DNA from: Amphiscolops sp. MND2022
Taxonomy: Eukaryota
Direction of reading: 5' to 3'
NCBI GenBank assembly: GCA_964187785.1
Contig: OZ076409.1
Span: 33,048,001 to 33,112,000, forward strand
DNA: 64,000 nt
A program made the translations under genes and the position numbers. Position 1 is the first letter of the stretch. The number at the start of each line of letters is the position of its first letter. This document shows positions 6,531-48,990 of this stretch, in pieces. Below the pieces are notes generated by a model, which was not told the DNA's origin, searched no databases, and was given only the letters and a program-made list of their open reading frames with translations.

Positions 6531-6639
6531 CATCCCTTTCGTCTGATTCTTTCGATAAGTAGTTCACATTTGACATTCCTCTCCGTCTGTTCTGCAACCT
6601 CTGCTTCATCTGCTTTCTTCTTTCCTGATAATTTTGGTT

Positions 6640-22200: not shown

Positions 22201-25200
22201 TATTTTGTGCAAATTTTCATTTTTTTTTCAGTTACTTTTTTGCCATTGGCTCGGAAAAAGCCTATATTGACACAAATAACAATTCACACCAGATAGTCCA
22301 TTTAGATTGTCAATAGGAAAGACAGTTTTTCGTTTTCCTCTTTGCTTTTTGCGTGTCGTATTTTGTTATTGATTGCAAAAAAAATCGCTGTCCTCATTTG
22401 AGGACGAACTCACTGTCGAAGTTATACAAAAATGATGGAAAACGTAGTGGGAACAACCATCCAAACGTCCTATCTTGCTTGTTTTTGGTTGCAGACGACA
22501 TTTCCATGAAAAAAACGCCTATAGGTGTTTCTCGATTTCCTCAGTGTAACCTCGACAGTACATCGAGAAGTCGAAAAGTTGACAAAATTTTGGCAAATTT
22601 TCTTCAAAGCTTCATTTCTCCACAAATGATAGCCGCAGCTCCAATCGATTTTCTGTTCCTAAAAACCCTTTACCTAAGCTTTCAAATGCACCCTTGTTAG
22701 GTCGCGAGTTGACGCCACATGTTGGGGTAAGAGGGCGATTCCGGCGGCGCGGGTCCGGAAACAACGGGCTTTTCAAATATCGGTTGAACTCATAACTAAA
22801 GCTTCATTGAAAAAATTTCTATATGCGTTTTCAATTGTTGCAAACTGTGTTACTAGACTGGGACAGTAACTTATTGAACAGTTGCTCAGTTATTGAGAAA
22901 AAACGAATTTTCTGAAATGTAATTTTTTGCATTTTGTCACTTGTTTTCAGTTACTTTTTTGCCAGGGGCTCGGAAGAAAGATTTTTGACACAAATAACAA
23001 TCCACACCAGATAGTCCATTTAGATTGTCAATAAGAAAGACAAGTTTTCGTTTTCCTCTATGCTTTTTGTGTGTCGTATTTCATTTTTGATTGCAAAAAA
23101 AAATCGATGTCCTCATTTGAGGACAAAATCACTGTCGAGGTTATACAGAAATGATGAAAAACGTAGTAGTGACCACCATCCTAACGTCCTATCTTGCTTG
23201 TTTTTGGCTGCAGACTACATTTTGATAGAAAAGACGCCAAAATTTTTTCTCGATTTCCTCAGCGTAACCTCGACAGTACATCGAGAAGTCAAAAAATCGA
23301 CAAAACTTTGGCAACATTTCTTCAAAGCTTCATTTTTCCACAAATAACAGCTGCAGCTCCAATCGGTTTTCAGTTCCTGAAAGCCCTTTACCTAAGCTTT
23401 CAAATGCACCCTAGTTAGGTCGCGAGTTGGCGCCACATGTTGGGGTAAGAGGGCCATTCCGACGGCGCGGGTCCGGCTACGACGGGCCTTTCACCTATCG
23501 CTTGAACTCATAACCAAAGCTTCATTGAATAAAACTTCAACTTGCGTTTTCAATGGTGGCAAACTGTGTTACCGGAGTGGGACAGTAACTCAGCAAGCAG
23601 TTGCTCAGTTATTGAGAAAAAAAACGAAATTTCTGAAACGTTTGTTTTGCGAATTTTTACTTTTTTTCAGTTACTTTTTTGCCAGTGGCTCGGAACAAAA
23701 ACCTATATTGACACAAGTAACAATTCCCACCAGATAGTCCATTTAGATTGTCAATAAGAAAAACAATTTTTCGTTTTCCTCTATGCTTTTTGCGTGTCGT
23801 AATTTATTATTGTTTGAGAAAAAAATCGCTGTCTTCATTTCAGCACGAAATCACTGTCAAGGTTATACAGAAATGCTGAAAAACGTAGTAGGAACCACCA
23901 TCCAAACGCCCTAATTTGCTTGTTTTTGGGTGAAGATGACATTTATGAAAAAGCTCTCATATGTTTTTTTTCGATTTCCTCAGTGTAACCTCGACAGTAC
24001 ATCGAGAAGTCGAAAAGTTGACAAAATTTTGGCAAATTTTCTTCAAAGCTTCATTTCTCCACAAATGATAGCCGCAGCTCCAATCGATTTTCTGTTCCTA
24101 AAAGCCCTTTACCTAAGCTTTCAAATGCACTCTAGTTAGGTCGCGTGTTGGCGCCACATGTTGGGGTAAGAGGGCCATTCCGGCGGCGCGGGTCCGGCTA
24201 CGCCGGGCCTTTCAACTATCGCTTGAACTCATAACCAAAGCTTCATTGAATAAAACTTCAATTTGCGTTATCAATGGTGGCAAACTGTGTTACCGGAGCG
24301 GGAGAGTAACTCAGCAAGCAGTAGCTCAGTTATTGAGAAAAAAACGAACTTTCTGAAACGTTTGTTTTGCGAATTTTCACTTTTTTCAGTTACTTTTTTG
24401 CCAGTGGCTCGGAACAAAAACCTATATTGACACAAGTAACAATTCCCACCAGATAGTCCATTTAAATTGTCAATAAGAAAGACAATTTTTCGTTTTCTTC
24501 TATGCTTTTTGCGTGTCGTAATTTATTATTGTTTGAGAAAAAAATCGCTGTGTTCATTTCAGCACGAAATCACTGTCAAGGTTATACAGAAATGCTGAAA
24601 AACGTAGTAGGAACCACCATTTAAACGCCCTAATTTGCTTGTTTTTGGGTGAAGATGACATTTATGAAAAAATTCTCATATGTTTTTTTTCGATTTCCTC
24701 AGTGTAACCTCGACAGTACATCGAGAAGTCGAAAAGTTGACAAAATTTTGGCAAATTTTCTTCAAAGCTTCATTTCTCCACAAATGATAGCCGCAACTCC
24801 AATCGATTTTCTGTTCCTAAAAGCCCTTTATCTAAACTTTCAAATGCACCCTAGTTAGGTCGCGAGTTGGCGCCACATGTTGGGGTAAGAGGGCCATTCC
24901 GGCGGCTCGGGTCCGGCTACGCCCGGCCTTTCAACTATCGCTTGAACTCATAACCAACGCTTCAATGAATAAAACTTCAATTTGCGTTTTCAATGGTGGC
25001 AAACTGTGTTACCGGAGTGGGACAGTAACTCAGCAAGCAGTTACTCAGTTATTGAGAAAAAAACGATTTTTCTGAAACGTTTGTTTTGCGACTTTTCATT
25101 TTTTTTCAGTTACCTTTTTGCCAGTGGCTCGGAACAAAAACCTATATTGACACAAGTAACAAATCACACCAGATAGTCCATTTAGATTGTCAATAAGAAA

Positions 25201-27927
25201 GACAAGGTTTCGTTTTCCTCTATGCTTTTTGTGTGTCGTATTTCATTATTGATTGCGAAAAAAAAAATCGATGTCCTCATTTGAGGACAAATTCACTGTC
25301 GAGGTTATACAGAAATGAGAAAAAACGTAGTAGGAACCACCATCCTAACGTCCTATCTTGCTTGTTTTTGGCTGCAGACGACATTTTGATAAAAAAGACG
25401 CCAAAATTTGTTCTCGATTTCCTCAGCGTAACCTCGACAGTACAACGAGAAGTCAAAAAATTGACAAAACTTTGGCAACATTTCTTCAAAGCTTCATTTT
25501 TCCACAAATAACAGCTGCAGCTCCAATCGGTTTTCAGTTCCTGAAAGCCCTTTACCTAAGCTTTCAAATGCATCCTAGTTAGGTCGCGAGTTGGGGCAAC
25601 ATGTTGGAATAAGAGGGCCATTCTGGCGGCGCGGGTCCGGCTACGCCGGGCCTTTCAACTATCGCTTGAACTCATAACCAAAGCTTCATTGAATAAAACT
25701 TCAATTTGCGTTTTCAATGGTGGCAAACTGTGTTACCGGAGTGGGACAGTAACTCAGCAAGCAGTTGCTCAGTTATTGAGAAAAAAACGAATTTTCTGAA
25801 ACGTTTCTTTTGCGAATTTTTACTTTTTTTCAGTTACTTTTTTGCCAGTGGCTCGGAACAAAAACCTATATTGACACAAGTAACAATTCACACGAGATAG
25901 TCCACTTAGATTGTCAATAAGAAAGACAATTTTTCGTTTTCCTCTATGCTTTTTGCGTGTCGTAATTTATTATTGTTTGAGAAAAAAATCGCTGTCTTCA
26001 TTTTAGCACGAAATCACTGTCAAGGTTATACAGAAATGCGGAAAAACGTAGTAGGAACAACCATCCAAACGCCCTAATTTGCTTGTTTTTGGGTGAAGAT
26101 GACATTTATGAAAAAACTCTCATATGTTTTTTTTCGATTTCCTCAGTTTAGCCTCGACAGTACACCGAGAAGTCAAAAAATTGACAAATTTTTGGCAAAA
26201 TTTCTTCAAAGTTTCCTTTCTCCACGAATAATAGCCACAGCACCAATCGGTGTTCTGCTCCTGAAAGCCTTTTACCTAAGCTTTCAAATACACACTTGTT
26301 AGATTGCGAGTTAGCGCCACTTGTTGGGGTGAGAGCGCCACTCTGGCGGCGCGGGTCCGGCTACAACGGGCTTTTCAAATATCGGTTGAACTCATAACTA
26401 AAGCTTCATTGAAAAAATTTCTATATGCGTTTTCAATCGTTGCAAACTGTTACTAGACTGGGACAGTAACTTATTGAACAGTTGCTCAGTTATTGAGAAA
26501 AAACGATTTTTCTGAAATGTATTTTTTTGCAATTTGTCACTTGTTTTCAGTTATTTTTTTGCCAGGGGCTCGGAAGAAATATTTTTGACACAAATAACAA
26601 TTCACACCAGATAGTCCATTTAGATTGTCAATAAGAAAGACAAGGTTTCGTTTTCCTCTATGCTTTTTGTGTGTCGTATTTCATTATTGATTGCGAAAAA
26701 AAAATCGATGTCCTCAGTTGAGGACAAAATCACTGTCGAGGTTATACAGAAATGATGAAAAACGTAGTAGGAACCACCATCCTAACAACCTATCTTGCTT
26801 GTTTTTGGCTGCAGACGACATTTTGATGAAAAAGACGCCAAATTTTATTCTCGATTTCCTCACCGTAACCTCGACCGTACATCGGAAGTCAAAAAATTGA
26901 CAAAACTTTGGCAACATTTCTTCAAAGTTTCATTTTTCCACAAATAACAGCTGCAGCTCCAATCGGTTTGCTGTTCCTGAAAGCCCTTTACCTAAGCTCT
27001 AAAATGCACACTAGTTGGGTCGCGAGTTGGCGCCAATTGTTGGGTTAAAAGCGCCACTCCGTCGGGGCAGGCACGGCTGCGCCGGACCTTTCAAATATCG
27101 GTTGAACTCATAGCTAAAGCTTCGTTGAAAAAACTTCTATATGAGTTTTCAAGGGTGGCAAACTGTGTTACTAGACTGGGACAGTAACTTAGCAAACAGT
27201 TGCTCAGTTATTGAGGAAAAAACGAAATTTCTGAAAGGTACCCTTTTGCAATTTTTCACGTTTTTTCAGTTTTTTTGCCAGTGGCTCGCAAAAAAATCTG
27301 TATTGACACAAATAACAATTCACACCAGATAGTCCATTAGATTTTCAATAAAAAAGACAATTTTTGGTTTTCCTCTATGCTTTTCCCGTGTCGTAATTTT
27401 CTATGGACGTTTCAAGTATCGGTTGAACTCATAACTAAAGCTTCATTGAAAAAACTTCTAAATGCGTTTTCAGTGGTTGCAAGCTGTGTTACTAAAGTGG
27501 GACAGTAAATTAGCTCAGCAAACAGTTGTTCAGTTATCGAGAAAAAAACAAATTTTCTGAACTGTACTTTTTTGAATTTTTTCACTTTTTCCAGTTATTT
27601 TTTTGTCAGTGGCACGGAAAAAAATCTAAATTGACACAAATAACAATTCACACCAGATAGTGCACTAGATTGTCAATAAAAAACACAAATTTTTGTTTTC
27701 CTCTATGCTTTTTGCGTGTCGTAATTTTTTATTGATTGCAAAAAATCGCTGTCCTCATTTAATAACGAAATCACCGTCGAGGTTATACAGAAATTGTAAA
27801 AAATGTAGTAGGAACCACCATCCAAGCGTCCTACTTTGCTTGTTTTTGGCTGCAGACGACATTTTCAGGACAAAGAACGCGAATAAGTTTATTCGATTTC
27901 CTCAGTGTAACCTCGACAGTACACCGA
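10245..27927 (+). repeat. tandem satellite array, ~720-bp monomer (roughly 25 copies, some deleted)
   Basis: The landmark GTTAGGTCGCGAGTTGGCGCC recurs about every 720 bp (e.g. ~18400, 19120, 19845, 20525, 21245, 21975, 22695, 23415, 24135, 24855, 25580, 26300, 27015). Confidence 0.97.
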
Positions 27928-27950
27928 CATTACGATACACATCCCGGTAA
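27928..27950 (+). repeat. left terminal inverted repeat
   Basis: CATTACGATACACATCCCGGTAA, directly at the satellite junction. Confidence 0.85.
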
Positions 27951-29240
27951 AATGGATTTCAGTCACGCAGGGTAATCTGTGTAATCCGTAAAATGGTCAT
28001 TCAGCGTAAGTTAGTCAAGACAGTCTTTGCCTGGACGGTGTAGCGGTATCAACGCGCGTATTGGAAAATAGTGTAAACTAGTCAACGCACGTAGTTAGTG
28101 AAAAGTGGAAGTTAGTCCAAAAATACGTGAACTTCCTCAAGAGAGAAATGGTCAATATGTTTGTGCTGTGACTGACGGAAACAAGTACAAATTTAGGAAT
28201 GTTTTAAAGTTTGATGAGTTCGAGAAAAAAAGTGATGACTTCCTATTTTACACCTGTTCACCCGTTTTGGATAAATGCTTTCGATGTTCTGAAAGAAAGT
28301 TTTTTCACAGAACCTAGAGAGTTGACTTTGCAAGAAGTAACACAGTCATTTTTTTTACCATTCACAAGGGAAAAAACAATTGAACGTTACCAGAGTTTGT
28401 GAGAACTTTCAAAACAAAATGAAAGCAGCCCACAGGAAGCCAAAAAAGAAGACTGGTCAACAAGCCAACTCTAACACTTGATGCAACTGTAAGTTCAACA
28501 GTGGAAGTGATCTCGCATGCAACCAAAACTCCACCAACCAACGCCCCCAATTCTGATTCAGCAGCTCGGAGACAGTTGAAGCAAGTAGAGATGACTACGA
28601 TGTTCCCGATTCCAAAAAAGCAACTGTTCTATTCCAGAGATAGTTTTGCCAGCATCAATTCAGGAAGTTAAATCTTTGTCTCTGCCATGAGCACAGCTGA
28701 AACTTTTTATTGATCCTTTTTGCTTTCCGTTCGTCCACCAAACTTTTTGAACAATTTGGACTTTAACTCCTACAAAACTCCACTAGAGTAGATATTGTAT
28801 GGTCTTTTTCAGGTGAAAAAAATTCTTTCCTCCAAATAGTCCAGAGGACACTATTCCTACAGCGGCCCAATGCAGCAAAAAAGTATGAGATTTTACTAGA
28901 CTGTGTCTAATACTAGTAGTCGGGAAAATTTTTAAATCAAAGTATTGTTTATACTATCTTGTCCTTCTTGAAACAACTTTCCGATTTCAAAGTCAACTGA
29001 TTTTATATTTTCAACTCTATTTATTGTGATATCATATTTCAACATAAATTCAACTGAAAACAACTGATTTTTAATATAGTTTGTTTACGTAAGACAGTAA
29101 TTTTTCTTATTTACAAGATGATACGTATGACACTAGTGGAGTCTCTCATAAATTTAGAAATTTTTTTGGGACTTCAAAAGAAGTTTAAGTTTTTGAAAGA
29201 GGTTTCGAGTTTTTTTATCTCTGGGCCTAATGCTTTTTCG

Positions 29241-29280
29241 CATAACGAGACAACTCGGTGAAATGGATTTCAGTCACGCA
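29241..29280 (+). repeat. internal degenerate copy of the left terminus
   Basis: CATAACGAGACAACTCGGTGAAATGGATTTCAGTCACGCA versus the terminal CATTACGATACACATCCCGGTAAAATGGATTTCAGTCACGCA. Confidence 0.85.
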
Positions 29281-30459
29281 ACTGTTTTATACAGGACGTT
29301 TCAAAAAGTCTGTGAGTTTTGGATTTTTTGCAAAAATGAAGTCAAATTTAACTAATTTTTTTTCAAACCCAAACCAAACTTCTGGTCGTATAAAAGTAGG
29401 TTCTGATCCTTTGAGGCATATCAAGGCAGTTTGTAATTTGTTTTTTTTTCTCCTAGTCACTTCTACGATCCACTTCTGGTGGCTATCATATCTTTTGAAA
29501 ATGTTTTCTTAATCATTGCAGCAAGTATCGTTGTTTTTGTGATTTGTTTCTGGCTCCTTGCTTAAACAGGTTTTGTATTTGAGGCATATCAAAATGATAC
29601 AAAAACCAATCATCACTCAACGTGGCATCAACTACGTGAAACCTATTTTTCTGAACGTCTTGTTTCCGAGTTTGTTCCAGCGAGAAAGCAATGACTGTCT
29701 TCTTCCCAATGATCGCAGGAAGGCCACAGATTTCCTCAAGAAGCATTTAAAAGATTTATTTTGTACTTTCTTTTTTTCAAGCAAAAACATAACTAGAGAT
29801 TGAAAACGGAATTATCCAAAACATGATTGTGAGATATAAAGAATGCACTTAAACATTGCATTCTAGGTGATTGTTTGTGGCACGTTTTGATTCATGATTG
29901 TTGCAGGACTGAACGTAAACTTCACTGATGGATTCAAGTGAAGGTGTGCTATAAAAGCCCCATGGATTCAAAGAAAGGTGTGCTTTGTTGCAAGAAGACG
30001 CATTCGATTCATTGGTAATATCTTCACCCCCATCATTGATTCCCTGGACGACTTAAAGATTTGTCTATATATGGCTATTTTTCTTTCGCCCAATCCAGAC
30101 TAAACCTCTTTTTCGACATTTGACACTACTTTTTCACAACAGTCATCCTTGCAAGGATCACCCTCGACTGTGGAAACAGGCGTTCCGCTGCAGAATCTTT
30201 GGAGGCCTTCTATCAAAACTATATCGGAATCAAAAATTGCATTGGGTCACTTTATTGAAACTCTCAAGCGTTTTTCACAAGTCAAACCTTCAACAAGAAA
30301 AAACACCTTAGTTCATAAACTTTTTTTCTGAAAACCATTTTTTTTCTGCCAAACTTGTTTTGCCTTGAAACAGAAGACATTCAAATGGAGATTCAATGCC
30401 TACTTACTCTCAGTAATCCGCATGATCTTCTAGTCAAAAGAGGTTGACTGTTACAATGC

Positions 30460-32290
30460 TCTTTCATCAAAGCAACCATTCCCCCTTCGAGACGTGAACT
30501 CCAAGCAATCACATGTAAATTGAACAAAAATTTCAGATCAATACTCACTCCCAGAGAACCCCCGCTGTGTTCCTTGTAAATCTTGTTACATTTGTCAGAT
30601 TCGTTGCCTACAGTTTGTATAACAAGACCAGCTCAGTCGGCTTGAGGGTCGACCTTTATGGAGATGCATTTTCTCGGGGGAAAAAGACGTCGTACGAATG
30701 GCCTTCCGAATTTGCAAAGCGGCATCGAAACTGAGCAATCCGCAACTCATGTATTAACGTTTGCTCTTTTTGAAGTGAGTCGTTCAAGTTTTACTCTGAA
30801 AATTCGAAACTTGATTTCTATTGTGAGTTTTATCAAATTGTTTCTCGAGAACCTAATTTTGGTCCCTGTTGTGAGCTACACCTAATAGTTTAGGGAACGC
30901 AAATCTAAACTGGTTCCCTGTCGTTAGGTACACTTAAATGATTAATAAGTTGTTGGAACACAAAACAAATTTGGTCAGTCGTGCGCAGCAGTTGATTGTT
31001 TTGTTGATTTAATACCAAATTTTTCCCTGTTGTGAAAAACTTGAAGTTGAAACATGAATTGGAGTATTTTCCATGGTGAAGATGTGCGAATCAACCTGAA
31101 ATACAACCTCGCCATGTCAGAAGTGCTTGGAAGGCCTGGATGGTCATACAACGTAACAAAGGCCTTACATGACGAAAGTCCTATACAGAGTTGTTCGGGT
31201 GATTCACCATTCCAACTACGTCTTTTGAAAGGTGTTAGCAGTGATGTTTCTTGTCTGTCAAAGATGTGTCAAGGATGCCGCAGATATTCCGAATCCACCA
31301 CTGAAACAAACAAAAAAGGACATCGCTGAATATAAGAGAGAAATGGAAGGAAAGGGGTGATTCTTCCGTCAACTGTCGATTATGCTACTGGTCGAAGAAC
31401 AGAGTTGATCATTGACATCAACGAATGCATCCCAAAGAATTCTCTCTTTTTTCTCAAATCCACTTTCAATACATGTCCTGATCTGCTGCATATGGTTGTT
31501 CGTTCAGTCGAAAGTGACTTGAAGTTAGTTACATGTGGACTCACTGTTGCTGTTGAAAGACCATGCAGCAATATCTAGGCTCGAATGTAACATAAGGTAA
31601 GGAAATGTGAAACCGCCGAGATTCAAGTTTGAGATAGTTGAAAACCCTTGCAAGGCTGTATCTCTCTGTTTCAGCGACGCCGTGGTCGTTATATCCAATC
31701 TGCAACAGAATCAGCAACTATGGCCAATCAGACTGCCCAATTTTTGAAGGCGTGTGTTCATTCGAAAAACATCATGTCTACAAAGCTGACCAAACAATCT
31801 GTACAACGTCTGATAACGTACAGGTATCATTGGTTGATTTGGTTGATTTGGGTTGGAGGCACCTTTCATAAAAGGAGTGGGCAATTCTGTTCGGAAACTG
31901 GCTGACCTTCAATTCCGATCTCTTTATCAGTTTTTTTGATTTGATTCTACAGAGAGAATTCAGACTTTCCAATGTGTAAAAATCTCTAGGATTTAATATC
32001 AGTCAACTTTATGTTTTTTCGGTGATCGTGCGTTGACGCTATACAAATTGAAATTGGATTTATTACTCAGAATTTGTGAGAAGGGAGAGCTTCTGTCTCC
32101 ATTTTTTTACATGACAGAAGGAACTGAAAAAAGTCACCACACGGCAGCCAAAGACTACAATACGAAGACAATGCGTGATGGTGGTAACGATGCTTGGAAC
32201 ATGTCATCCAGTTATCTCAATATTCACCTTTCCTTCTACAGTGCAATTAGTTTTTGTTCTGCGACACTTGAATCTTACCGGAAGTTGTAA
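30460..32290 (+). pseudogene. RAG1/Transib-like DDE transposase core (intron-containing, frameshifted)
   Basis: Motifs in the expected order: IPPSRRELQAITCKLN; VDLYGD(30663)AFSRG...VVRMAFRI; EQSATHVLTFALFE | GT donor 30775 | GED; SGD(31201)SPFQLRLL followed by CQGC; CPDLLHMVVRSVE; LTLYKLKL...FYMTEGTE(32126)KSHH...Y..KT..DGG. The last parallels the RAG1 SEGNE region. Confidence 0.75.
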
Positions 32291-32420
32291 GGAAAAACAA
32301 ATATTATCTTGAAAATTGCCGTGAACCCTTTCCAGAACCCGAACTTGATTATTTTAGAACTGAAGACATGTTTAGAGGTCCGATATGACATGCATGTACT
32401 GCATACTCATAGGTAATGAC

Positions 32421-32726
32421 ATGCATTTTGTCGTTCTTGGAAAATATGGCCACCTGTAAAAAACTCAAGCGATTCTTGGAAAGAAGATCACAGAAAACGG
32501 AGGAAATGTTGTTTCGTATGAAGATAACATCATTGCTGACCTTTTTGAGCCATCGTTATTGCTTGTTACCAAATCGAAATTGTATCGATGCATTCGTTAA
32601 TGGTCAACCAAGTAAAAAAAGCAACAAAAACCCGTTCCAATACGATACTTGAACGCTGAATTTGTAGTCGCCTGAGTGTAGAAGAAGGCCTTGATTGATC
32701 CCAAAGGTTATGTGTTCGAAGTAGAT
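32421..32726 (+). pseudogene. BRCT-like domain downstream of the transposase core
   Basis: Hand translation: MHFVVLGKYGHL*KTQAILGKKITENGGNVV..., then LNAEFVVA*V*KKALIDPKGYVF. These match the typical BRCT beta1/alpha1-GG and C-terminal patterns. Confidence 0.65.
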
Positions 32727-32915
32727 CAGTCTGCGAGAGCCAAATTCAAAACAATGAAGTACATATCTGTGGCCCCGCGATTACAACGTCAATCAAACCC
32801 CTACGACATGGTTCATTAACTTACCATACAGCAATGCGGAAATACAAGAATACAAGAACACACTAAAAACGGCGGCCCTGAAGTGAAAAGTAGACGACGT
32901 TTAATACCGACTGAA

Positions 32916-33222
32916 TTCAGTGCAGATCTAAAACTTACTCATTTTATCAGACAAGGTACCTTTAACCGCCTAATTATCATTTCAGTGCAGATCTAAAATT
33001 TACTTTTTCCATCAGGCAAGGTCCTTTTGACCGCTTCTTTATCATTTCAGTGCAGATCTAAAACTACCTTGTCTTATCAGACAAGGTCCCTTTGACCGCT
33101 TCATTATCATTTCAGTGCAGCTCTAAAACTTACCAATTTTATCAGATAAGGTCCCTTTGACGGCATAATTGTCATTTCAGTGCATATCTAAAACTTATGA
33201 ATTATGTAATTTCAGTGCAGAT
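32916..33222 (+). repeat. 65-bp tandem minisatellite (~4.5 copies) inside the transposon
   Basis: TTCAGTGCA starts at 32916, 32981, 33046, 33111 and 33176 (exact 65-bp period), with a partial unit at 33211. Confidence 0.95.
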
Positions 33223-34481
33223 TCAGAAAAAATTTTTTCTTTCAGACAGGTTCACTAATAATCGCAGTTCAATTTATTTTTTCATAGTATATCTTTTCGC
33301 CGTGACGCAACCTATTTTTTCATAGTTTATCTTTTTGCTGTGACGTTTTCTCTGAAAATTCCTTCAGTCGAAGTTTTGATCCCCTTCGAGAGCGCAATTT
33401 TTGCATTCATCAAGTTGACATTCCCTCTGTAACCTTACTTACTTTTGAATGATCTACGACAGCTGCGCGTGAATGATTTATGAGGAGTTGTGACTTCCTG
33501 GAATAGTGTGACTTGTTGTGAGTTGTTGAATGTATATAGTTGACTATCATTTCATAGTTTGTTTCATACGATATCGAATGGAGTACTCATGAGTGACTTC
33601 CTGGATTTTTTTCACTTGATATCAAATGGCAACACTGCCGACTACGCCATCAACGTCTCATCGAAAGACACCAGAGAAAGTCTCCTGCGGCCGAGAGTCG
33701 ATCACCAGAAAGATTTCAAAAAACAATAGTTTTTCTGATCAAGCTGTAACAATTTGCTAATTTCTTCCACGGAAGAGTTTAATCTGACGTATGGAATTCC
33801 TTTTAGGCACTTGTGACGTTTTGGACCAACTGTCCAACATCCTACGCCACTGCAAAGTCTGTCCCCGAATGCCACGGTAGTAGTTCAAGCTCATGGGGAG
33901 AAAGTGCCAGCTCTTCGGCCAGATCATTTTCGCCAAAAAGCTACTGAAGAAGCACTACATTACAAAGTATTGTAAGGAGCTGCAAAAGCGGAAAGCAGAA
34001 GGCCTGCCTACCCGAATGTACCAATACGGTTAGTCATTACCATGTATATTAGATTTTTACCTACTTGTGAACACTTTGAAGTGTTCAGTGTATCATGTCC
34101 AAAAAGATAAGGAAACTCAATGATGTTGCTTTTGAAAAAAAGTCGCGCTTTCAAACAAAAGGTGTGTTTAAATTCTCGTAAGTTGTATGTTACAGCAGCT
34201 CAAAAGGCTTGAAGCGGAAGCCTAACTTATGCTACGGCAGAAAATGCGGCAAGTCATATGTTTACCCTTTTGACTTGCGCGTACACTTTTTGAAAAATCC
34301 TCAAGGCCTGTAAGGAGCGAATGTGCGCGACTTTCGTAAAATACATGGAACAACTGCAATTTGATCCCTGTCGTGAGCTTGTTTTCCAACTTGTCTATTA
34401 AATGCATTTGAACTATTCTAACGAGTAGAAAGTTGTCTGCCTTACTCCCGTCTTAGTCATTTAATGAGCATTTCATTTCAG

Positions 34482-35210
34482 AGTCGCGGACATCCAGACA
34501 TCCTCAGTCTGAATGAGTTCAAGCAGGAACTCATCAACGCGGACAGAAGCAGCGTTTACTATCATTTATTCGCTATAGACATCGGCATGCGGTCAAATGT
34601 AAATAAGGGGCTCTTTTGATGGAGAACGCAAATTCACTGGAAATTTTCTTCTCTGATTTTCCCCATCCTCCTGTTTAGTGGCCTAAAAACTGGACTTCTA
34701 CTGGAGGATTCTACTCAACATAATGCACATTGTTTTGAAACAACTTCTTCAACGTAAATTGATTTTTTGGCTTTTCAGTCCATCTACAGCGTGCCAACGA
34801 TGATAAAAAAAGGTCGTCAGTGAACCACCTTGTGGATGAGCTGGTCAGTAAGTCAGAAGAACCGTTCTCAGTAGCAACTTCATACTACTTGCTGATCTCC
34901 AACGATGGTTGTCAAACAACTTGGCACACGGACTTCAGTTCAACATCTGTCTTTTATACATTCTTGACTGGGTCCAAGACCTTCTTTCTGGTTGCACCAT
35001 GCAGTCCTCACTCCGTGGAGAGGGACGAATTTCCTTTCAGAAGGCCACTCGAATCAGATCAAGAAGGCAATCATTGAAGAAGACTCTTTCAGGGATCATG
35101 AGAAGTTTCCGGGCATGTTGGAAATGCTAGCCATTTTGATGCTCCGGACCTCCTCCGACTTCACATGGTCATTGAGAATCGATATCAAGAAAGTGAAGCC
35201 GTTGCTGTGA
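34482..35210 (+). pseudogene. JmjC histone-demethylase domain, KDM2/KDM7(PHF8)-type, spliced and decayed
   Basis: Exon 34482-34598 (LSLNEFKQEL...YHLFAIDIG), GT-AG intron 34599-34778, then YYLLISNDGCQTTWHTDFSSTSVFYTFLTGSKTFFLVAP (HxD). After a deletion/frameshift: HAVLTP...GTNFL...EKFPGM. Family consensus for comparison: YCLMSV.GCYTDFH.DFGGTSVWYH...G.K.F.LIPP and HAV.TP......GGNFL. Confidence 0.88.
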
Positions 35211-35441
35211 GATCCATTTTTTATCCAAGTTCACATTCGTTTCGAATTAAACTAGTGATCGAATTTAGTATTGTATAATGAAGCCGTAATGTGACTCACG
35301 ACAGTAATCAAAATCAAATTTTGAACAATTATGACGTTGTGACTCACAACAGTAACCAAATTTGAAATAGGTAGTCAACAAAGTTGATAAAATAACATAG
35401 TGAATTATCACGAGTTTTTTTCACACTTGCCCAGAATTCAG

Positions 35442-35586
35442 CAAGGAGAGACTCGTCCACAAAATTTGCTTGCGGAAAGACTTCGTAAACGATATTTGTG
35501 TGACAGCGTTCACGGAGAGGGCCTCAAAAAAGGCCTATTTTGTTTGCCCCAAGCCTTGCTTCAGAAGAAGGAGAACTGGGATATGA
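35442..35586 (+). pseudogene. possible PHD-finger exon (C-terminal half) following the JmjC domain
   Basis: After an AG at 35441 the frame reads KERLVHKICL...YFVCPKPC...stop. This resembles the HxxC...CPxC half of PHD fingers such as that of KDM2. Confidence 0.5.
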
Positions 35587-35999
35587 ACGAAGACGGCGTG
35601 AGGGTCTCGAAGGAAGCAAATTCTGAGGAGCACCTCACTTTTTTTCTGAAGACCTGATGTTGACGAACCGAATTGTGATGTTTTTATCAGCTATGAGGAA
35701 GCCATCACGTATGTTCTTCCACGACCGTCACAAACTGTCAGAGGGTTGCACAAAGTGCCAAAAAGAAGAACCTTCGTTCAAGAGCGTGCTAAGTTTGTTT
35801 ACCATCCGAGTAACATTCTTGTTGATTCGTTTTAATTTATATAAAGGTAATGTAAATGATAATATTCAACTCGAAACTGGTCACCTCGTTAAACATCTTA
35901 CATTTGATGTTTTTCTTTCTTCGAAAAGACTTCAAAATTAAATTAATGGAGTGTTAATCGAAGTCAATGTTATTGTTTCAGAATTCAGACCATCCACTG

Positions 36000-38344
36000 A
36001 TCGTTACGTTGTTTCGATCATTAGCCATCCTGTCCCTGCCTGCATACAGTTGTGCTACTTAACATGTTGAACTTTGTGGTCTCCGAGTTTTTTGTTGTGC
36101 TCAGTAAAATGTACACTGTGGCTCGATTTACAACAATTGAATGGCATTTCGTTATCGTTAAGTAAAGCACGCATAAACCATTACACGAAAAAACACGATC
36201 GAAGTCTATTTCTGATCTCTTCAACGGAATTTGCATCTTTCCACTTTGCCACCAACTTGAAGTTTGAGAAAAAAACGCTCTGGAGTCTCGAAGGACCGTC
36301 AATGACTCGAAAGTTCTTCGTAGTAATTTTTGTTGAAACATTCAGCAACTTTTTACAGCAAAGTCCAATGACGCAATAGTCAAATTAAAATGTCTTATTT
36401 CATTGATAACTTCACCGTGAAAAGTCCGTTGTTGACCATTATTCAAATGTTAGGTTACTTTTCATTTATTACGTTAATGTGTACAATTTACCTTCAATTT
36501 GTGGTGCATTTGTACAGCCTTGATCTTTTGTAAGTTTGTAACCTTCTGGATTGTACCTTTTTGTGTTTTGGACAATTACTGTCGGAATTGTCGAGTAGTT
36601 GTTTCCAAAAAAAGAGGAACATCTACCGTCGGGAATATTGGGTGGTTGTATCCAAAAAAGTTGTCAACTACTGTCCAAATCAATTTTTGATGGCCGACGG
36701 AAATCATCGGTTCATCGAATAGGAGTTTCCAATTAACTTTCAGAACAAGACGAGTCTGAACAAGACAAGCAAAATCCTCTTTGTTAAGGAGAATAACAGG
36801 TTTTTAGGCTGTTTGATTACAAACAGGAGTGTGTAATGTCGGAGATGAATCAATTCTAGAAACCACTAGTTTGTTAAAAAACTCTGCGACGAAGCAAACA
36901 AAAAACGAGCTCATGTTTAGGTAATTTACAGTGTTCTCGAGGAAATATAAATTGTCAGATTGGGTTTGTTCGGGAGAATTTAATGTGAAAACTATGCATA
37001 ATATTTCGAAAACAGTTGATAACTTTCGAAATCGAAGTTTGTCTCTAGATTCAATAGCTTTGTGTTAGTTGAAGCAAAGACTTGGCTACAAACTGTTGAT
37101 AAATCAGTCAGAGAATAGAAAAACGATGAAAGGTCCCAATTTTACACAGAATCAGCTGTCTGTAAGTACAATTTTTGTCTAAAAGTTTTCCAAATTGAAC
37201 TAATCTAAACTAGAAGAAATTTTGAAGATACGTTTCTTTCTGACAATTTTCCAAATTTTTCCAGAAAAAATCGAGCCTGAAAGTGCTCGGGGGATGTTTT
37301 CTTAATCACAGTACTGTAGCTCTCAACCAATGAAATGAACGTGTGGGTCTCAAGTAGCCAATGATATTTGTTTGTTCGTTCCGGCTGCCCTATTGTTCTT
37401 CAAAAGTCGATCAAATCACTTGACTCCAATTGTTGTTTGTTATGTTTGCTATCGAATATAGACTCAAATTGTTTCAATTATTTTTGAGAATCAACAGAAG
37501 TACAGGTACTTTTTGAAAATCGTCGTGTATTATTCAGTATTCTTTTTTTCTTACGATGTGTTTTCAGAAAAAAAAAACGAGTTTCGATGAATATTGTATT
37601 TTGAATACAAAATTAGCACCACCTTAAAATTAATACAAAAATGGCACCATCTTCCTTATTTATAATGAAATGTGAACATTCTGAACTGTTTGGTGAAGAA
37701 AATCACAAGAAAATGATATTTGAAAACAACAATTTATCTCTTGAAGATCAAATAAACAATGAGTTTTGAAATTTTAATGTTTTAGAAATACTTGACTTCT
37801 CTGTTGAAAATTTCGTTGAAATCATTTCAACTAAACTTTGGGTCCCTCGGACAATATTTTAGCCTGAGCAGGCATCCTTGTTTCCTGCAGTGAGGGCACT
37901 TGACCCAAATGGCAGTTTCCCTGTAAATGACAGAGGTCCTTATTTTCGAACGACATGTTGGTTGAGTTTCCTTTTTCAAAATCTGTAACCAAGTGTGTTT
38001 CAAAGATTCCAGGATCACACAAAAGTGAAGAACACGCCTCAAAAAATTTATCACTGACAGGAATATGTGAAAACAGCTTCGATAACAGTTTTTAAAAGCA
38101 AGCTTATGTTAAACTTACCTCCCAACCACTTTGATCCAGGCTTGACAGCACTGATCGCAAATCGCGTGTTCATCATGGAGAATCCAAACGGAGGAATAGA
38201 CATTGTTTTCACAGATGGCGCAGAGCATTTCCAGATGGTTAATATGGCGGTGGATATTATGTTTTTTAAAATTATATCAGTCTTGTCGCACGGTTGTTTG
38301 GAGGTCGAATGGTCAAAACAACCGGCCCGGTACATATAGAACAC
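36000..38344 (-). pseudogene. possible third, convergently oriented gene remnant, product unknown
   Basis: Long minus-strand reading frames with only one or two stops at ~36000-36380 and ~36490-36914, plus ORFs 37827-38054 and 38051-38344. No domain recognised. Confidence 0.3.
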
Positions 38345-39567
38345 ATAGTAAAAGGAAATATTTGAACTTCAATCTGTCAGTATCTTTTATTTCTATGTAC
38401 GAACAAGTTGCCTTACTTCATGACTTGACAACCTGCAAGTCCTTTTAATCTTTTCACTAAAGTAACCACCTAATAAATTTAGAAACTCTGTACCACCTAT
38501 TAATTGGTTAGTAAACGAACGCGGTACTGCGGTAGTGATATGGAAGAGTCATCTTGTTTATCATCTTATTTTGAAACAAACAACAGTATTCCATGTGATT
38601 TCTTCAATGTTCCTTTTTCCTGCAACCTCCAGTCAATATGTCCGTGGACAGGTCTCAACAATATTTGCTAAACTATCTTTCAATGGTCAGGGTATTTTGA
38701 TCGATGGTATTTACAGAATTTTGATCCCTGTCGTGAGCAACATCAGGAAAAATTACAAATAGTCTATACGAAGTTGAAACTTTATCAAACTGAAAACAAT
38801 AGTTTAAGGATTACTAACCATGAAATATGGAACTAAAAACGAAGTTTGTATCATGTGCTTTATTATCCCTCACATAAACAATGTTTCTTATCCAACAACA
38901 ACCACCCATTTAAGTCCCCCCAAAGAAAAGAAAGTAGGTCACTAATCCAAGGTGAGCATTATAAACAAAGCATGTTAACAAACCTTAAATTTTTTGAACC
39001 TGAAAACAAAACTTGGTTTTACTGATAAAATTAAATTCAATACAAATCATGAAACAATGAACTGATTACAAATACTTACACTGACAGTAAAACTACGTAT
39101 GTACGCATAATCTAAACGGGCGATTGATTGGTCATCAATTTATTGAAATTGGTAATTTTGGCGCCTGTCGTCAGCACTTCAATTAGCACTGCCAGTGTCT
39201 ATTCACTAGTACTACTAATATTATTACTACTAATGTATTAAGATTAACTGATTGATACTGTGTATGCGAATCAAGCAGTGTAGTTATGAGTCGGTCGGTG
39301 TTACTCACCAGAAAGACCCGTAATTACCAAAACTATGTGTAAATATGAGATGCACAGTGTGGTAGACAAATTGCGTAGACACGATGACCGGTGTAAACTA
39401 GTCAATTACTGTAATTTTCGATGGCGTAAACTGGTTAACTTACAAAGCTGTGTCAACTAGTGTAACGTCCTATCAATGAGTGTAATGTGTGACAAGTGTA
39501 AAACTTCCAAAAAAACATTCGCGTTCTGATTGGACAAAAATCGGACTAGCGGGATCCTGCTAGTTCG

Positions 39568-39590
39568 TTACCGCGATATGTCCCCTAATG
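39568..39590 (-). repeat. right terminal inverted repeat, preceded by a subterminal hairpin at 39545-39564
   Basis: TTACCGCGATATGTCCCCTAATG at the junction; ACTAGCGGGATCCTGCTAGT is a near-palindrome. Confidence 0.85.
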
Positions 39591-39967
39591 AAGAAGTCGA
39601 AAAATTGAGAAAATTTTAGCAAAATTTCTTCAAAGCTTCATTTCTCCACAAAAAAGCTGCAGCTCCAATCAATTTTTTGTTTCTGAAAGCCCTTTGTCGA
39701 AACTCTTAAATGCACACTAGTTAGGTCGCGAGTTGGTGCCACTTTTTGAGGTGAGAGCACCATCCCGGCGGCGCTGGTCCGGCTTCGCAGGGCCTTTCAA
39801 ATATCGGTTGAACTCACAACTAATGCTCCATTGAAAGAAAATTCTATATGCGTTTTTAATGGTGGCAAACTTTGGTACTATAGTGGGACAGTAACTTAGC
39901 AAACAGTTGCTCAGTTATTGAGGAGAAACAAATTTTCTGAGATGTTTTTTGCTTTTTTTCACTTTTT

Positions 39968-40037
39968 CATTACAATACACATGCCGCAAAGAACTAGCAA
40001 GATATTGCTAGTTCGTTGCGGCATATGTATTGTAATG
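39968..40037. mobile_element. 70-bp palindromic MITE with CATTA...TAATG ends
   Basis: 33-bp arms match at 31/33 around a 4-bp spacer. Inserted in a satellite T-run that now totals 9 T versus the usual 6-7, consistent with a TT duplication. The ends resemble those of 27928-39590. Confidence 0.9.
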
Positions 40038-43000
40038 TTTTCAGGTACTTTTTGCCAAGTGGCTCGAAAAAAATCTATATTGACACAAATATTAATTCCC
40101 ATCAGATAGTCCATTAGATTGTCAATAAGAAAGACAACTTTTAGTTCGTTTTCCTCTATGCTTTCTGCGTGTCGTAATTTATTATTGATAGCGAAAAAAA
40201 TCGCTGTCCTCATTTGAGGACAAAATCACTGCCGAGGTTATACAGAAGTGATAAAAAACGAAGTAGGAACTACCATCCAAACGTCCTAACTTGCTTGTTT
40301 TTGGCTGCAGACGACATTTTCTTTTAAAAAAGCCAACAAGTTTTTTTTTTCGAATCCCTCAGTATAGCCTCGACAGTACACCGAGAAGTCGAAAAGTTGA
40401 CAAAGTTCTGGCGAATTTTCTTCAAAGCTTCAATTCTCCACAAATAATAGCTACAGCTACAAGCGATTTTCTGTTCTCTGTTCCTGAAAGCCCTTTAGAT
40501 AAGCTTTCAAATGCACATTAGTTCGGTCGCGAGTTGCCGCCACTTGTTTGTGTAACAGTGCAACTACGGCGGCGCGGGTATCGCTGCGCAGGGCCTTTCA
40601 AATACCGGTTGAACTCAAAACCAAAGCTGCATTGAAATAAAACTTCGGTATGCGTTTTCAATGGTGGCAAACTGTGTTACTAGATTGGAACAGTGACTCA
40701 GCAAGCAGTTGATCAGTTTTTGAGAAAAAACGAATTTTCTGAATTGTACTTTTTTGCATTTGTTCACTTTTTTCCAGTTACTTGTTTGCCAGTGGCTCGG
40801 AAAACATCTATAGCGACACAGATAACAATTCACACCAGATAGTCCATTAGATTGTAAATAAGAAAGACATTTTTTTGTTTTCCTCCAAGCTTTTTGCGTG
40901 TCGTAATTTTCTATTGATTGCGAAGAAAACCGCTGTCCTCATTCGAGGACGAAATCACTGTCGAGGTTTAGAGAAAGGACGAAAAACGTAGCAGGAACCA
41001 CCATCCAAACGCCCTAACTTGCTTGTTTTTGGTTGCAGACGACATTTTCAGAAAAATAATGCCAACAATTTTTTTCTCGATTTCCTCAGGATAACCTCGA
41101 GAGTACACCGAGAAGTCTGAAAATTGAACAAAATTCTGGCAAATATTCTTCGAAGCTTCTTTTCTACACACTTAATAGCAGCAGCTACAATCGAATTTTT
41201 GTTCCTGAACGCCCTCTACCTAAAATTTCAAATGCGCATTATTAAGTAATTGAGTTGGCGCCACTTGTTGGGGTAAGAGCGCCGCTCCGGCGCCGCGGGT
41301 ACGGCTACTCCGGGCTTTTCAATTATCGGTTGAACTCACAAATAAAGCTTCATTGAAAGAAACTTCTATATGCGTTGTCAATGGTAGCAAACTGTGTTAC
41401 TAGAGTGGGACAGTAGCTTAGCAAACAGTTGATCAGTTATTGAGAAAAAAAACGAATTTTCTGAATTGTACTTCTTTGCAATTTTTCATTTTTTCAGTTA
41501 CTTTTTGCCAGTGGCTCGGAAAAACATCTATATTGACGCAAATAACAATTCACATCTCATAGTCCTTTAGATTGTCAATAAGAGAGTTAATTTTTCGTTT
41601 TCCTCCAAGCTTTTTAGTTGTCGTAATTTTATATTGATTGCGAAAAAAATCGCTGTCCTCATTTGAGGACGAAATCACCGCCAAGGATATACAGAAATGA
41701 TGAAAAACGTAGTAGGAACCACCATCCAAACGTCCTAACGTGCTTGTTTGTGGCTGCAAACGACCATTTCAGGAAAAAAAGCGCAAATAAGTTTTTTCGA
41801 TTTCCACTGTATAACATCGACAGTACACCGAGAAGTCGAAAAAGTGACAAAATTCCGGCAAATTTTCGTCCTTTACCTAAGTTTTCAAATGCACATTAGT
41901 TAGGTCGCGAGTTCGCGCCACTTGTTGGGGTAAGAGAGCCACTCCGGCGGCGCGGGTCCGGCTGCGCAGGGCCTTTCAAATATCGGTTGAACTCATATAT
42001 AAATCTTCATTGAAAAACTTATATATGCGAGTTCATTGGTGGCAAATGGTGTTACTAGAGTGGGACAGTAACTTAGGAAACAGTTGCTCAGTTATTGAGA
42101 AAAAACGAATTTCATGAAATCAACTTTTTTGCAATTTTCACTTTTTTTTCAGTTACTTTTTTGCCAGTGGCTCGGAAAAAAACTTATAATGACACAAATA
42201 GTTAATCACACCAGATAGTCCATTCGATTGTCATTAAGAAAGACATTTTTTTTGTTTTATTCTATGCTTTTTGCTTGTCGTAATTTATTATTGATTGCGG
42301 AAAAAAATCACTGTCCTCGTTTGAGGACAAACTCACTGTCGAGGTTATACAGAAATGTTGAAAAACATAGTAGGAACCACAATCCAAACGTTCTAACCTG
42401 CTTGTTTTTGGCTTCAGACAACATTTTCATGAAAATACCGCCAATATTTTTTTTCGATTTCCTCAGAATAACCTCGACAGTACACCGAGAAGGCTGAAAA
42501 TTGACAAAATTCTGTGCAAAATTTCTTCGAAGCTTCATTTCGCCACAAATAATAGCCGAAGCTACAATCGATTCTCTGTTCCTGGAAGCCCTTTACCTAA
42601 GCTTTCAAATGCACATTAGTTAGGCATTGAGTTGGCACCACTTGTTGGGGTAAGAGCGCCACTCCGGCGGCGCGGGTCCGGCTGCGCAGGGCCTTTCAAA
42701 TATCGGTTGAACTCATAACTTAAGCTTCATTGAAACAAATTTCTATTTGCGTTGTCAAGGGTGGCAAAATGTGTTACTAGAGTGGGACAGTAATTTAGCA
42801 AATAGTTGCTCAGTTGTTGAGAAAAAACGTTTTTTATGAAATGTACGTTTTTGCAATTTTTCACTTTTTTTCAGTTACTTTTTTGCCAGTGGCTCGGAAA
42901 AAACCTATATTGACACAAATAACTATTCACTTCAGATATTCCATTAGATTGTCAATGAGAAAGACATTTTTTCGTTTTCCTCTATGCTTTTTGCGTGTCG

Positions 43001-44782
43001 TAATTTGTTATTGATTGCGAAAAAAAATCGCTGTCATCATTTGAGGACAAAATTACTGTCGAGGTTAAACAGAAGTGATGAAAAACGCAGTAGGAACCAC
43101 CATCCAAACGTCCTAACTTGCTTGTTTTTGGCTGTAGACAATATTTTCATGAAAATAACGCCAATACGTTTTTTTTCGATTTTCTCAGAATAACCTCGAC
43201 AGTACACCGAGAAGGCAAAAAATGACAAAATTCTGGCAAAAGTTCCTCGAAGATTCATTTCTCCACAAATAATAGCCGCAGCTACAATCGATTCTCTATT
43301 CCTGAAAGCCCTCTTTCTAAGCTATCGAACGCACATTAGTTAGGTATTGAGTTGGCGCCACTTGCTGGGGTAAGAGCGCCACTCGGGCGGCGCGGGTCCG
43401 GCTGCGCAGGGCCTTTCAAATTTCGGTTGAACTCATAACTAAAACCTCATTGAAAAAAACTTCTATATGGGTTTTCCAATGGCAAACTGTTACTACATTG
43501 GGACAGTAATTTAGCAAACAGTTGCTCAGTTTTTGAGAAAAAAGAATTTTGTGAATTGTACTTTTTTTGCAATTTTTCACTTTTTGGATACTTTTTTGCC
43601 AGTTGCTCGGAAAAAAACTTATACTGACACAAATAATACTTCACACCAGATAGTCCATTCGAATGGTAATAAGAAAGACATTTTTTCGTTTTCCTCTATG
43701 CTTTTTGCGTGTCGTAATTTATTATTGATTGCAAAAAAAATCGCAGTCCTCATTTGAGGACAAAATCACTGTCGAGGTTATACAGGAAAGATGGAAAACG
43801 TAGTAGGAACCACCATCCATAACTAAAGTTTTTTTTGAAAAAAACTTCCATATGCAATTTCATTGGTGGCAAACTGTGTTACCAGAGTGGGACAGTAACT
43901 TGGCAAACAGTTGCTAAGTTATTGAGAAAAAAACCAGTTTCCTGAAACCAATTTTTTTGCATTTTTTCTTTTTTTTCAGTTACATTTTTGCCAGTGGCTC
44001 TGAAAAAAATCTATATTGACACAAAAAACAATTCACACCAGATAGTCTATTAGATTTTCAATAAGAAAGACATTTTTTCGTTTTTCTCTATGCTTTTTGC
44101 GTGTCGTAATTTAATTTTGATGGCGAAAAAAATCGCTGTCCTCGTTTGAGGACAAAATCACTGTCGAGGTTATACAGAAATGATGAAAAACGTAGTAGGA
44201 ACCAGCATCCATAACCAAAGCTTTTTTGAAAAAAACTTCTATATGCGTTGTCAATGGTGGCAAACTGTGTTACTAGAGTGGGACAGTAACTCAGCAAACA
44301 GTTGCTCAGTTTTTGAGAAAAAACGAATTTTATGAAAGATACTTTTTTGCAATTTTTCACCTTTTTTCAGTTACTTTTTTGCCAGTGGCTCGGAAAAAAA
44401 CCTATATTGACACAAATAATACTTCACACCAGATAGTCCATTCGAATGGTAATCAGAAAGACATTTTTTCGTTTTCCTCTATGCTTTTTGCGTGTCGTAA
44501 TTTATTATTGATTGCAAAAAAAATCGCAGTCCTCATTTGAGGACAAAATCACTGTCGAAGTTATTCAGAAATGATGAAAAACTTAGTAGGAACCACCATC
44601 GATAACTAAAGTTTTATTGAAAAAACTTCTATATTCGATTTCATTGGTGGCAAACTGTGTTACCATAGTGGGACACTAACTTGGCAAACAGTTGCTTAGT
44701 TGTTGTGAAAAAAAACGAATTTCCTGAAATCACCTTTTTTGCACTTTTTCACTTTTCTTAGTGGCTCGGAAAAAAACTATAA

Positions 44783-45588
44783 TGTTGGCGCCAGTCATCT
44801 GCGAGATCAGAAACTCAAATTCGAACGTGACTGATGAAACTTACAACTCAAAACACTTAGAAACTTTGTTAAGATTCGAGTTGGAAAATTACAGGTTTCA
44901 GCAGCAATATGCCTGAGGGAAAAACACCACTTCCCTTATTGAGAAGCACTTGTCCAATGACCCTGAAACTTAGCATGCATATACAAGAGGTGCTAACTCA
45001 ATTTTTCACTCGAACCACCCTACCTTGTATCTCCCCTGGGTTCAGAGCAATTAACACCCAAAGTGACCTAGGTCGGACCCCATGAAAACCCAATTTTGAT
45101 GTAGTAATAATTATGTGATTTTCTCATTTGACCTTGAAGGAAATGTAACTCCGTTGACATTTATTATATTTACATTGTGTAAACATACTTTCTAGCCCAC
45201 CTAACCAACATGCCAAAACCACCACATAGTTTGTTTACATAGCCAAAACTTCATTTTATGCTTTAAATGTCTTTGATTTATTCAACATATTTCAACTGAT
45301 ATTTGCTTATATTTACTGTAGAATTGTAAACTACTTTTATACCATTATTAGATAGAGATTTTTTTCACTGAATAGCTATAGTCAAGTTGGGTCTTAGGAT
45401 CCAACTCAGTGCAAAGAGGAATCGCAGGAGATTTCTACGGGTCACATCGGACCCACCAGCTAAAAGATACAGTCCTTTAAAACAAGAAAACCAGGATTTG
45501 TTTAGTGACGGTCCACAGCACTAAGCAACGGATCAGGGAGGCGTAAAGTTTGTCAAGCGTCAGCGCAGGATAAGGGCAAGAAGATACA
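44783..45588 (+). repeat. 5' LTR (806 bp, with an internal deletion)
   Basis: TGTTGGCGCCAGTCA...GATACA. Homologous to 50150-51108 but lacks ~140 bp near 45399. Confidence 0.92.
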
Positions 45589-45590
45589 TT

Positions 45591-45607
45591 TGGTCCGCCG
45601 ACCCGGA
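45591..45607 (+). promoter_or_regulatory. primer binding site, probably for tRNA-Tyr
   Basis: TGGTCCGCCGACCCGGA lies 2 nt after the LTR. It is complementary to a tRNA 3' end ...GGACCA and similar to the TGGTCCTTCGAGCCGGA PBS common in BEL elements. Confidence 0.7.
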
Positions 45608-45728
45608 CAACTCGTTGGTGGACGGTCCGGACTAGAAGGAGAAGACGAGGACGAAGACGTCTCGTTGGTGGACAACTGAGAAGATTGCCCGAGAAGAACA
45701 AGTGTCTGGATCTTGGAGTCTCTGAGTT

Positions 45729-45909
45729 TGTGTCTCTGGGATTTTGGGCTACTGTGTCTCTGGGAGATCGGGCTACTGTGTCTCTGGGAGTATGGGCTAC
45801 TGTGTCTCAGGGGGATTGGGCTACTGTGTCTCTGGGAGATTGGGCTACTGTGCCTCTGGGAGATTGGGCTTTTGTGTCTCTGGGAGTTTGAGCTATTGTG
45901 ACTTTGGGA
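45729..45909 (+). repeat. 24-bp tandem repeat (~7.5 copies) in the BEL leader
   Basis: Unit TGTGTCTCTGGGAGATTGGGCTAC. Confidence 0.95.
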
Positions 45910-45935
45910 ACTGAGTTCAATCAAGAAGAGAAGAG

Positions 45936-48453: not shown

Positions 48454-48990
48454 AAACGTTCGCTTTGTGTGACAGTGGAGCAAGTCTATCCTTTGTGGAC
48501 GAGAGCCTGACAAAAACGTTAAATCTGACGGGACAACCAGTGGGTTTGAATGTGGCAGAGTTTCATGGAACCTCAGATATTAGTAGCAAACGACTTCGAG
48601 TCAGGATTGGAGATCAAGACGGAAAGGTCAATGAAGATATTGTGGCCTATAGTCACCCCAACGTAAATGCAGGAAATCGAACGTACGATCTCAAGAAATT
48701 GAAGGAAACATATCCTCACCTGTCCGTTTTGAAGGACTCTACAGTCAACTTGGGAGATGTCAAAGTTATCCTGGGGCAAGATTGTTACCACTTGCATAGA
48801 GCCATTGGGTATAGAAAATGTGGATAGTCGAAACCTTGGGCCGTATTGACACAACTGGGATGGATGCCCAGTGAACCATTGCCTCGACAAGAGACTGCGA
48901 AGCTCGCCACCGAAAGTTTTGGTTTTGCAGATGTGGATCCATTGGTGGATCAGATGAAAACTCGGTGGGGTATGAAATTGTATAGTTCCC
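48400..48990 (+). pseudogene. BEL aspartic protease
   Basis: LPVIPVTI...ALCDSGASLSFV...VILGQD...WAVLTQLGW. Confidence 0.88.

Follow-up and report, generated by a model that had tools for sequence, protein, structure and literature searches.

A pseudogenised JmjC gene, probably the cargo of a multicopy CMCT-type DNA transposon, in the genome of Amphiscolops sp. MND2022

A DNA transposon copy within satellite DNA

Most of the window, by which we mean the whole 64,000-nt stretch of DNA analysed, is made of a satellite with a unit of ~720 bp, present in ~50 copies (10200-27900, 39600-44800 and 51000-64000). Satellite variants of ~390, 590 and 660 bp were also seen, with signs of alternating subtypes, and Rfam returned no match in the window, satellite included. 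One satellite unit is broken at position 27927 and picks up at 39593, and the corresponding empty site is found in 36 other units. This interruption delimits a DNA transposon copy of 11.66 kb (27928-39590), which starts with CATTA and ends with TAATG (CA..TG). The left terminal inverted repeat is imperfect and ~21 nt long (27928-27948, plus strand; preceded by GA at 27926-27927), and matches the right one (39570-39590, minus strand) at 15 of 21 positions. Comparison with the empty site revealed two extra bases after the right end, AA instead of a perfect GA, i.e., a target duplication with one mismatch. According to the available part of Kojima (PMC12730594), CA..TG termini and duplications of 2-5 bp characterise most lineages of the CMCT transposons; the copy described here has both, the duplication with its one mismatch. 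A search for transposon ends inside the element (27928-39590) found none. A palindromic miniature element of 70 bp with related ends (39968-40037), flanked by a duplication of 2-3 bases, is a separate insertion into the satellite.

Several additional features were observed in the element. A 31-nt direct repeat of the left subterminal sequence is present at 27939-27969 and 29250-29280 (90% alike), the region 28102-28668 contains short ORFs without credible Pfam match, and an open frame of 93 codons on the right-hand side of the element (38058-38336), perhaps a third gene, has no Pfam match. Proteins identical to the window frames 31054-31272 and 35711-35938 sit on contigs of different sizes (182,878 and 96,596), so at least two assemblies or haplotypes seem to contain the stretch.

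Outside the element and the satellite, the window contains, on its minus strand, a decayed element of the Ty3/gypsy type (2389-8462; RT-RNaseH, E=1.7e-12), bounded at both ends by the same palindromic repeats of 78-79 bp, and a decayed element of the Bel/Pao type (45500-50000; DUF1759 at E=2e-4, below cut-off) that includes tandem 24-bp repeats (45729-45909). As Bel/Pao elements typically occur in animals, the host was taken to be an animal. A perfect palindrome with two 138-nt arms and no spacer (9205-9480) is either real or an assembly fold-back.

The element carries a decayed transposase-like gene

Decayed frames on the plus strand at 29543-30796 probably represent the front of a transposase gene and include a candidate first catalytic Asp (30642-30671); they have no Pfam match. 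The transposase-like gene proper (31054-32907, plus strand) contains a candidate second Asp (31192-31212), a candidate Glu (32114-32140) and a BRCT-like tail from ~32370. Of its 46 matches, 41 are relatives distinct from the window's own protein, and overlapping fragments of these relatives indicate a single long frame; the window copy is interrupted by many shifts and stops. The candidate second Asp is invariant (7/7) and the candidate Glu is present in at least 90% of 13 sequences. The order and contexts of the three acidic motifs (30642, 31192 and 32114) resemble those of Chapaev/Transib-type DDE enzymes. Pfam, PDB and fold searches gave no match supporting a DDE assignment of the transposase-like protein: the model of a transposase fragment had a pLDDT of 41 and retrieved generic helical bundles only, and the atlas yielded a weak lead to DUF4218 (score 0.80). 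Two invariant Cys residues four apart follow the second Asp and no His pair was seen before the Glu; the motifs C(2)C and H(3-4)H, which CMCT transposases have between these two residues, are not plainly evident. The BRCT match in the tail of the protein (32370-32700) was obtained with three relatives at E=0.005-0.03, below cut-off, and a literature search for the combination of Chapaev, transposase and BRCT found no paper.

Structure of the JmjC gene

The second gene of the element, on the plus strand, was initially annotated as a spliced JmjC and PHD gene extending from 34482 to 35586; neither boundary was retained. The first verified exon (34482-34598), which weakly matches the intron-less relative P0043, is directly preceded by an acceptor at 34481, and 34482 is therefore not a start. 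Candidate upstream exons are located within 33807-34309 (33807-33971 and 34196-34309); they were delineated from splice-site candidates, and a profile search with them gave no match. The first exon is followed by a phase-0 GT-AG intron of 180 nt (34599-34778), which is intact as originally proposed: the splice is confirmed because three divergent relatives, P0038, P0042 and P0043, are intron-less and contiguous at this junction, with the same spacing across it. The comparison also implies a gain or loss of this intron inside the clade. The JmjC exon proper (34779-34999) contains the His, Asp, Tyr and Lys residues, and a remnant of the next exon (34998-35206) contains the distal His, the end of the JmjC core and the following helices; this remnant is recognised by the clade profile at E=4e-7. 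A second phase-0 intron (35207-35424) precedes the last exon (35425-35835), Cys-containing and ~135 codons long as delimited from relatives. The stop at 35584 that gave the annotated gene its end arises downstream of a +2 shift, and the relatives extend to ~35835.

The JmjC remnant matched the Pfam JmjC family over 34763-35074 with E=0.0016, under the curated cut-off, and its top solved relative in the PDB was KDM2A (E=1.6e-4). All 14 PDB matches of this single query were KDM2A, KDM7 (KDM7A), PHF8 or PHF2. The Fe(II) triad His-x-Asp...His can be read in the window at 34925, 34931 and 34998 and is kept in most relatives, in agreement with the initial report of retained metal ligands. Lys 34976 is retained on inspection of the sequence, and alignment to KDM2A identified the Thr, Lys and conserved Tyr of KDM2/KDM7 JmjC domains; we take the Thr and the Lys to be the 2-oxoglutarate residues.

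The gene had been labelled KDM2-like from the order of its domains, JmjC then PHD. As the PHD is unsupported (see below), this label loses its basis, and a profile built from the clade ranked PHF8 (E=7e-47) and KDM7A (E=1e-45) ahead of KDM2A (5e-39), opposite to the slight preference of the single query for KDM2A. The reverse order, a PHD before the JmjC as in KDM7/PHF8, was sought in the upstream ORFs, which had no Pfam match; the upstream exons are decayed. From these comparisons the JmjC belongs to a divergent clade of the KDM2/KDM7 group, KDM2 not being specifically indicated. As in KDM2A, PHF8, KDM7A and PHF2, the JmjC core has the Thr, His-x-Asp, Tyr, Lys and distal His; in contrast to these proteins, (i) its active-site context is a different one, common to a broad divergent clade, (ii) no PHD, CXXC, F-box or LRR was found, (iii) its last exon matches no known family and (iv) the gene is multicopy and element-borne.

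The window copy is a pseudogene inactivated several times over

Lesions were mapped by frameshift-aware alignment to the exon-sized protein calls of the relatives. The A7 run at 34805-34811, in which a 1-bp shortfall had been suspected, is part of a +2-nt difference (34805-34813) relative to four of five aligned relatives, and of +3 relative to the fifth, which lacks 1 nt there; +2 has the same effect on the frame as -1, with the opposite sign. The deletion thought to fuse FFLVAP to HAVLTP was located correctly (34998-34999, with a 2-nt CA overlap) and removes the 3' end of the JmjC exon, but its size had been underestimated at ~40 residues: counted from the alignment to relatives, 19 + 32 codons (~51) are missing together with a whole intron of ~170 nt or more (171 nt in two relatives), for a total of ~325 nt or more. 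The Pro of HAVLTP is the junction product of a separate 12-nt deletion after the distal His (~35021), the relatives having Ser, Asn, Cys or other residues at this position. Further defects had been overlooked: 28 nt are missing at ~35143 compared to all seven relatives, the acceptor of the second intron at 35424 is AC where four relatives imply AG, and the last exon has +2 nt at 35573 and -2 nt at 35649 relative to all three in-frame relatives. The early view of an inactivated gene is borne out by several lesions (the A7 shift, the large deletion, the -12, -28, +2 and -2 changes and the lost acceptor), and by alignment the JmjC gene of the window is a dead pseudogene. Since homopolymer shifts recur in the relatives P0126, P0173, P0174 and P0177, single shifts may be sequencing errors. 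An assembly artefact as the source of all the breaks was considered and excluded by the deletions of 12, 28 and ~325 nt and by the many stops.

A PHD finger in the last exon is not supported

The initial annotation had named a missing profile match as evidence against its PHD-like exon, and Pfam gave none at E≤1 for the window ORF and for three relatives. A leading Cys pair was sought in the exon and is absent, no zinc finger figures among the PDB matches of the exon, for which a PDB profile search produced one irrelevant match, and the atlas gave no match; the predicted model, with a pLDDT of 31, is unusable. The first Cys of the PHD-like pattern is present in two of five copies, as is its His. 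We considered whether the PHD-like reading came from a wrong frame and dropped this idea, as relatives confirm the frame up to 35573; beyond this position the chosen frame fails, its stop being a consequence of the +2 shift. All three in-frame relatives retain three other Cys, and a fourth is found in the window and in one of the three, the other two having Arg. The spacing of these Cys is reminiscent of a CW-type zinc finger; Pfam, the PDB profile search and the atlas were blank for such a finger in this exon. By these comparisons the last exon matches no known family, and its reading as a PHD is not supported.

A KDM2-like JmjC and PHD gene ending at 35586 is largely refuted. The correct frame over 35425-35573, the presence of Cys and His in the exon and the slight proximity of the single query to KDM2A speak for such a gene, but with neither a Pfam match, nor a PDB zinc finger, nor a leading Cys pair, with its first Cys and His shared by a minority of copies, and with an exon ~85 codons longer in the relatives, we consider it extremely improbable.

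The JmjC gene is multicopy and was under constraint

A search for undeleted copies, as had been suggested, was successful: 28 close matches were retrieved among 31 candidates, with identities of 60-97%. Almost all of them come from ENA contigs, which in many cases measure 100 kb to 1 Mb, and they are known as exon-sized gene calls, that is, at the protein level; one exon-3 protein is found on 30 contigs and another on 33. Metagenome and viral-contig scans returned no locus. In each of five copies compared in translation with the window, exon 2 is more similar (64-71 of 72-73 residues identical, 88-97%) than intron 1 (65-77%). This contrast relies on introns compared in translation; it serves as a proxy for purifying selection, not as a dN/dS estimate. 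Insertions and deletions in these five copies affect one site in exon 2 and several in intron 1. Similarly, exon 3 is 80-90% identical in seven copies, versus 50-73% for short intron stretches.

The catalytic residues are conserved much further. In an alignment of 20 sequences of the clade, conservation is at least 90% for each of Thr, His, Asp, Tyr and Lys, and subfamilies at ~55-70% identity retain the catalytic motif. Among the best 60 matches in 1.84 billion proteins, the canonical KDM2/7 active-site context is found in P0050 only, the others forming a broad divergent set. A tree of 57 rows and 93 columns, with one canonical row and after removal of four rows that lacked the motif stretch or were too short, supports the close family (99/98) within a weaker group of 18 rows (93/80); it is otherwise poorly resolved and gives no support for a direction of transfer. 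The higher conservation of exon 2 relative to its neighbouring intron supports long selection, and the proposal of a long, selected history rather than a recent capture is strengthened by the retention of the motif at ~55-70% identity, by the single canonical context among these 60 best matches and by a surrounding element with termini and a transposase-like gene. As judged from these sequence comparisons, the JmjC exon was under constraint.

A dispersed 18-nt motif links the two genes

An 18-nt motif is scattered between 30858 and 39174, on the plus strand at 30858, 30910, 33375, 34360, 38720 and 39157 and, inverted, on the minus strand at 35295 and 35343, within the intron preceding the last exon. 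With up to three mismatches there are 5 matches, one of which is the source of the pattern, versus 0.06 expected; with up to four mismatches, 8 sites are found within the element and none elsewhere in the window. None of the sites falls in a mapped exon; they are distributed over the transposase region, JmjC introns and the vicinity of the right end. The motif spans both genes, is confined to the element and ties these parts into one unit. Furthermore, 5 of the 39 contig sizes listed for transposase matches recur among the 66 listed for JmjC matches, compared to ~0.4-1.3 expected by arithmetic for an assumed genome of 300-1000 Mb. Contigs of equal size were taken as shared; a shared contig gives no distance, a single contig is listed per protein, and 34 of the 39 transposase contigs have no listed JmjC partner. 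Both genes within one element were observed in this copy only.

These data bear on two other origins of the JmjC gene. It could be part of a separate mobile unit or of a segmental repeat inserted into this transposon copy: a 65-bp tandem repeat of 4.3 copies (32916-33197) stands between the transposase-like and JmjC genes, and the full-length element is known as DNA from one copy. However, the lack of internal ends, the span of the 18-nt motif and the five contigs with both genes argue against such an insertion, which we regard as very unlikely. The gene could instead be a passenger, i.e., an amplified host-lineage paralogue useless to the element, the constraint stemming from the host function of its source gene. 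A ladder of related subfamilies does exist, and the available part of PMC11244446 discusses, for KDM4-like genes, a divergence of paralogues in the host before their uptake by mobile DNA. The exons are nevertheless more conserved than the introns among close, multicopy relatives, and the element's motif is found inside the JmjC introns, a similar stretch being read through in the intron of P0002; we rate a mere passenger as unlikely, somewhat less so than a separate unit.

Discussion

The explanation that we favour, and consider probable, is that the gene is the pseudogenised cargo of a multicopy, CMCT-type cut-and-paste DNA transposon (kin of EnSpm, Mirage, Chapaev and Transib) ~12 kb long in an animal genome, with a JmjC exon once under constraint and intact copies that would encode a KDM2/KDM7-group Fe(II)/2-oxoglutarate enzyme aiding the element. 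The copy in the window jumped into the satellite and bears both the transposase-like gene, now decayed, and the spliced JmjC gene. Intact elements would have made the enzyme, whose most likely action was the demethylation of histone lysines, and this demethylation may have kept the element transcribed or mobile in silent chromatin; local relief of silencing would be the simplest gain for an element landing in satellite chromatin. We infer this anti-silencing role of the JmjC cargo from sequence. The window copy itself can neither make the enzyme nor aid the element.

KDM7 and PHF8 remove H3K9me2, H3K27me2 and H4K20me1, and KDM2 removes H3K36me2. In plants, the short motifs of VANDAL elements are dispersed through their non-coding parts, and VANC, which is not a JmjC enzyme, acts on DNA methylation. 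Sequence-specific anti-silencing by VANC of the VANDAL MuDR elements is described in the available part of PMC12730594. The likeness lies in an element-encoded factor combined with scattered short non-coding motifs; in the present case the binder of the motif, the JmjC protein or the transposase, is putative. A more specific and tentative possibility, which we would not favour over the general one, is that of a long-carried KDM7-like eraser, whose Cys-containing tail (or the transposase) would bind the dispersed 18-nt motif and strip marks of the H3K9/H3K27 type from the element copies, as an animal counterpart of VANC at the level of histones; the family would then be one sample of a widespread clade of JmjC proteins of mobile elements. 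It is equally conceivable that the motif is bound by the transposase.

Chromatin enzymes carried by mobile DNA were known before, on transposons of fungi, oomycetes and plants and, for JmjC genes, in giant-virus insertions. The available part of PMC12730594 describes TET/JBP-bearing DNA transposons of fungi and oomycete HarbingerS/MuDR elements with SET methyltransferases. These are like the present element in being DNA transposons, including CMCT elements with CA..TG ends and 2-3-bp duplications, that bear the gene of a chromatin-modifying enzyme (PMC12730594); they differ in that the cargo here is a JmjC of the histone-demethylase type and the host an animal. The term JmjC does not occur in the main text of that paper (PMC12730594). 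In Amoebidium, giant-virus insertions bear KDM4-like JmjC genes proposed to counter silencing, which, like the gene described here, are divergent, intron-bearing, devoid of reader domains and located on mobile DNA (available part of PMC11244446); however, those belong to the KDM4 group and travel in a viral vehicle, as opposed to the KDM2/7 group and a cut-and-paste element. In fission yeast, the factor Epe1, which counters silencing, is reported to be a putative demethylase. No JmjC-bearing cut-and-paste transposon of an animal was found in the literature searched, which left aside most subscription papers and Repbase entries.

The window copy is ordinary decayed DNA, and its value is that of a pointer to the family. 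With its multiple copies, apparently intact exons, conserved active site and element-specific motif, this family would allow anti-silencing at the histone level, encoded by an element, to be tested in an animal.
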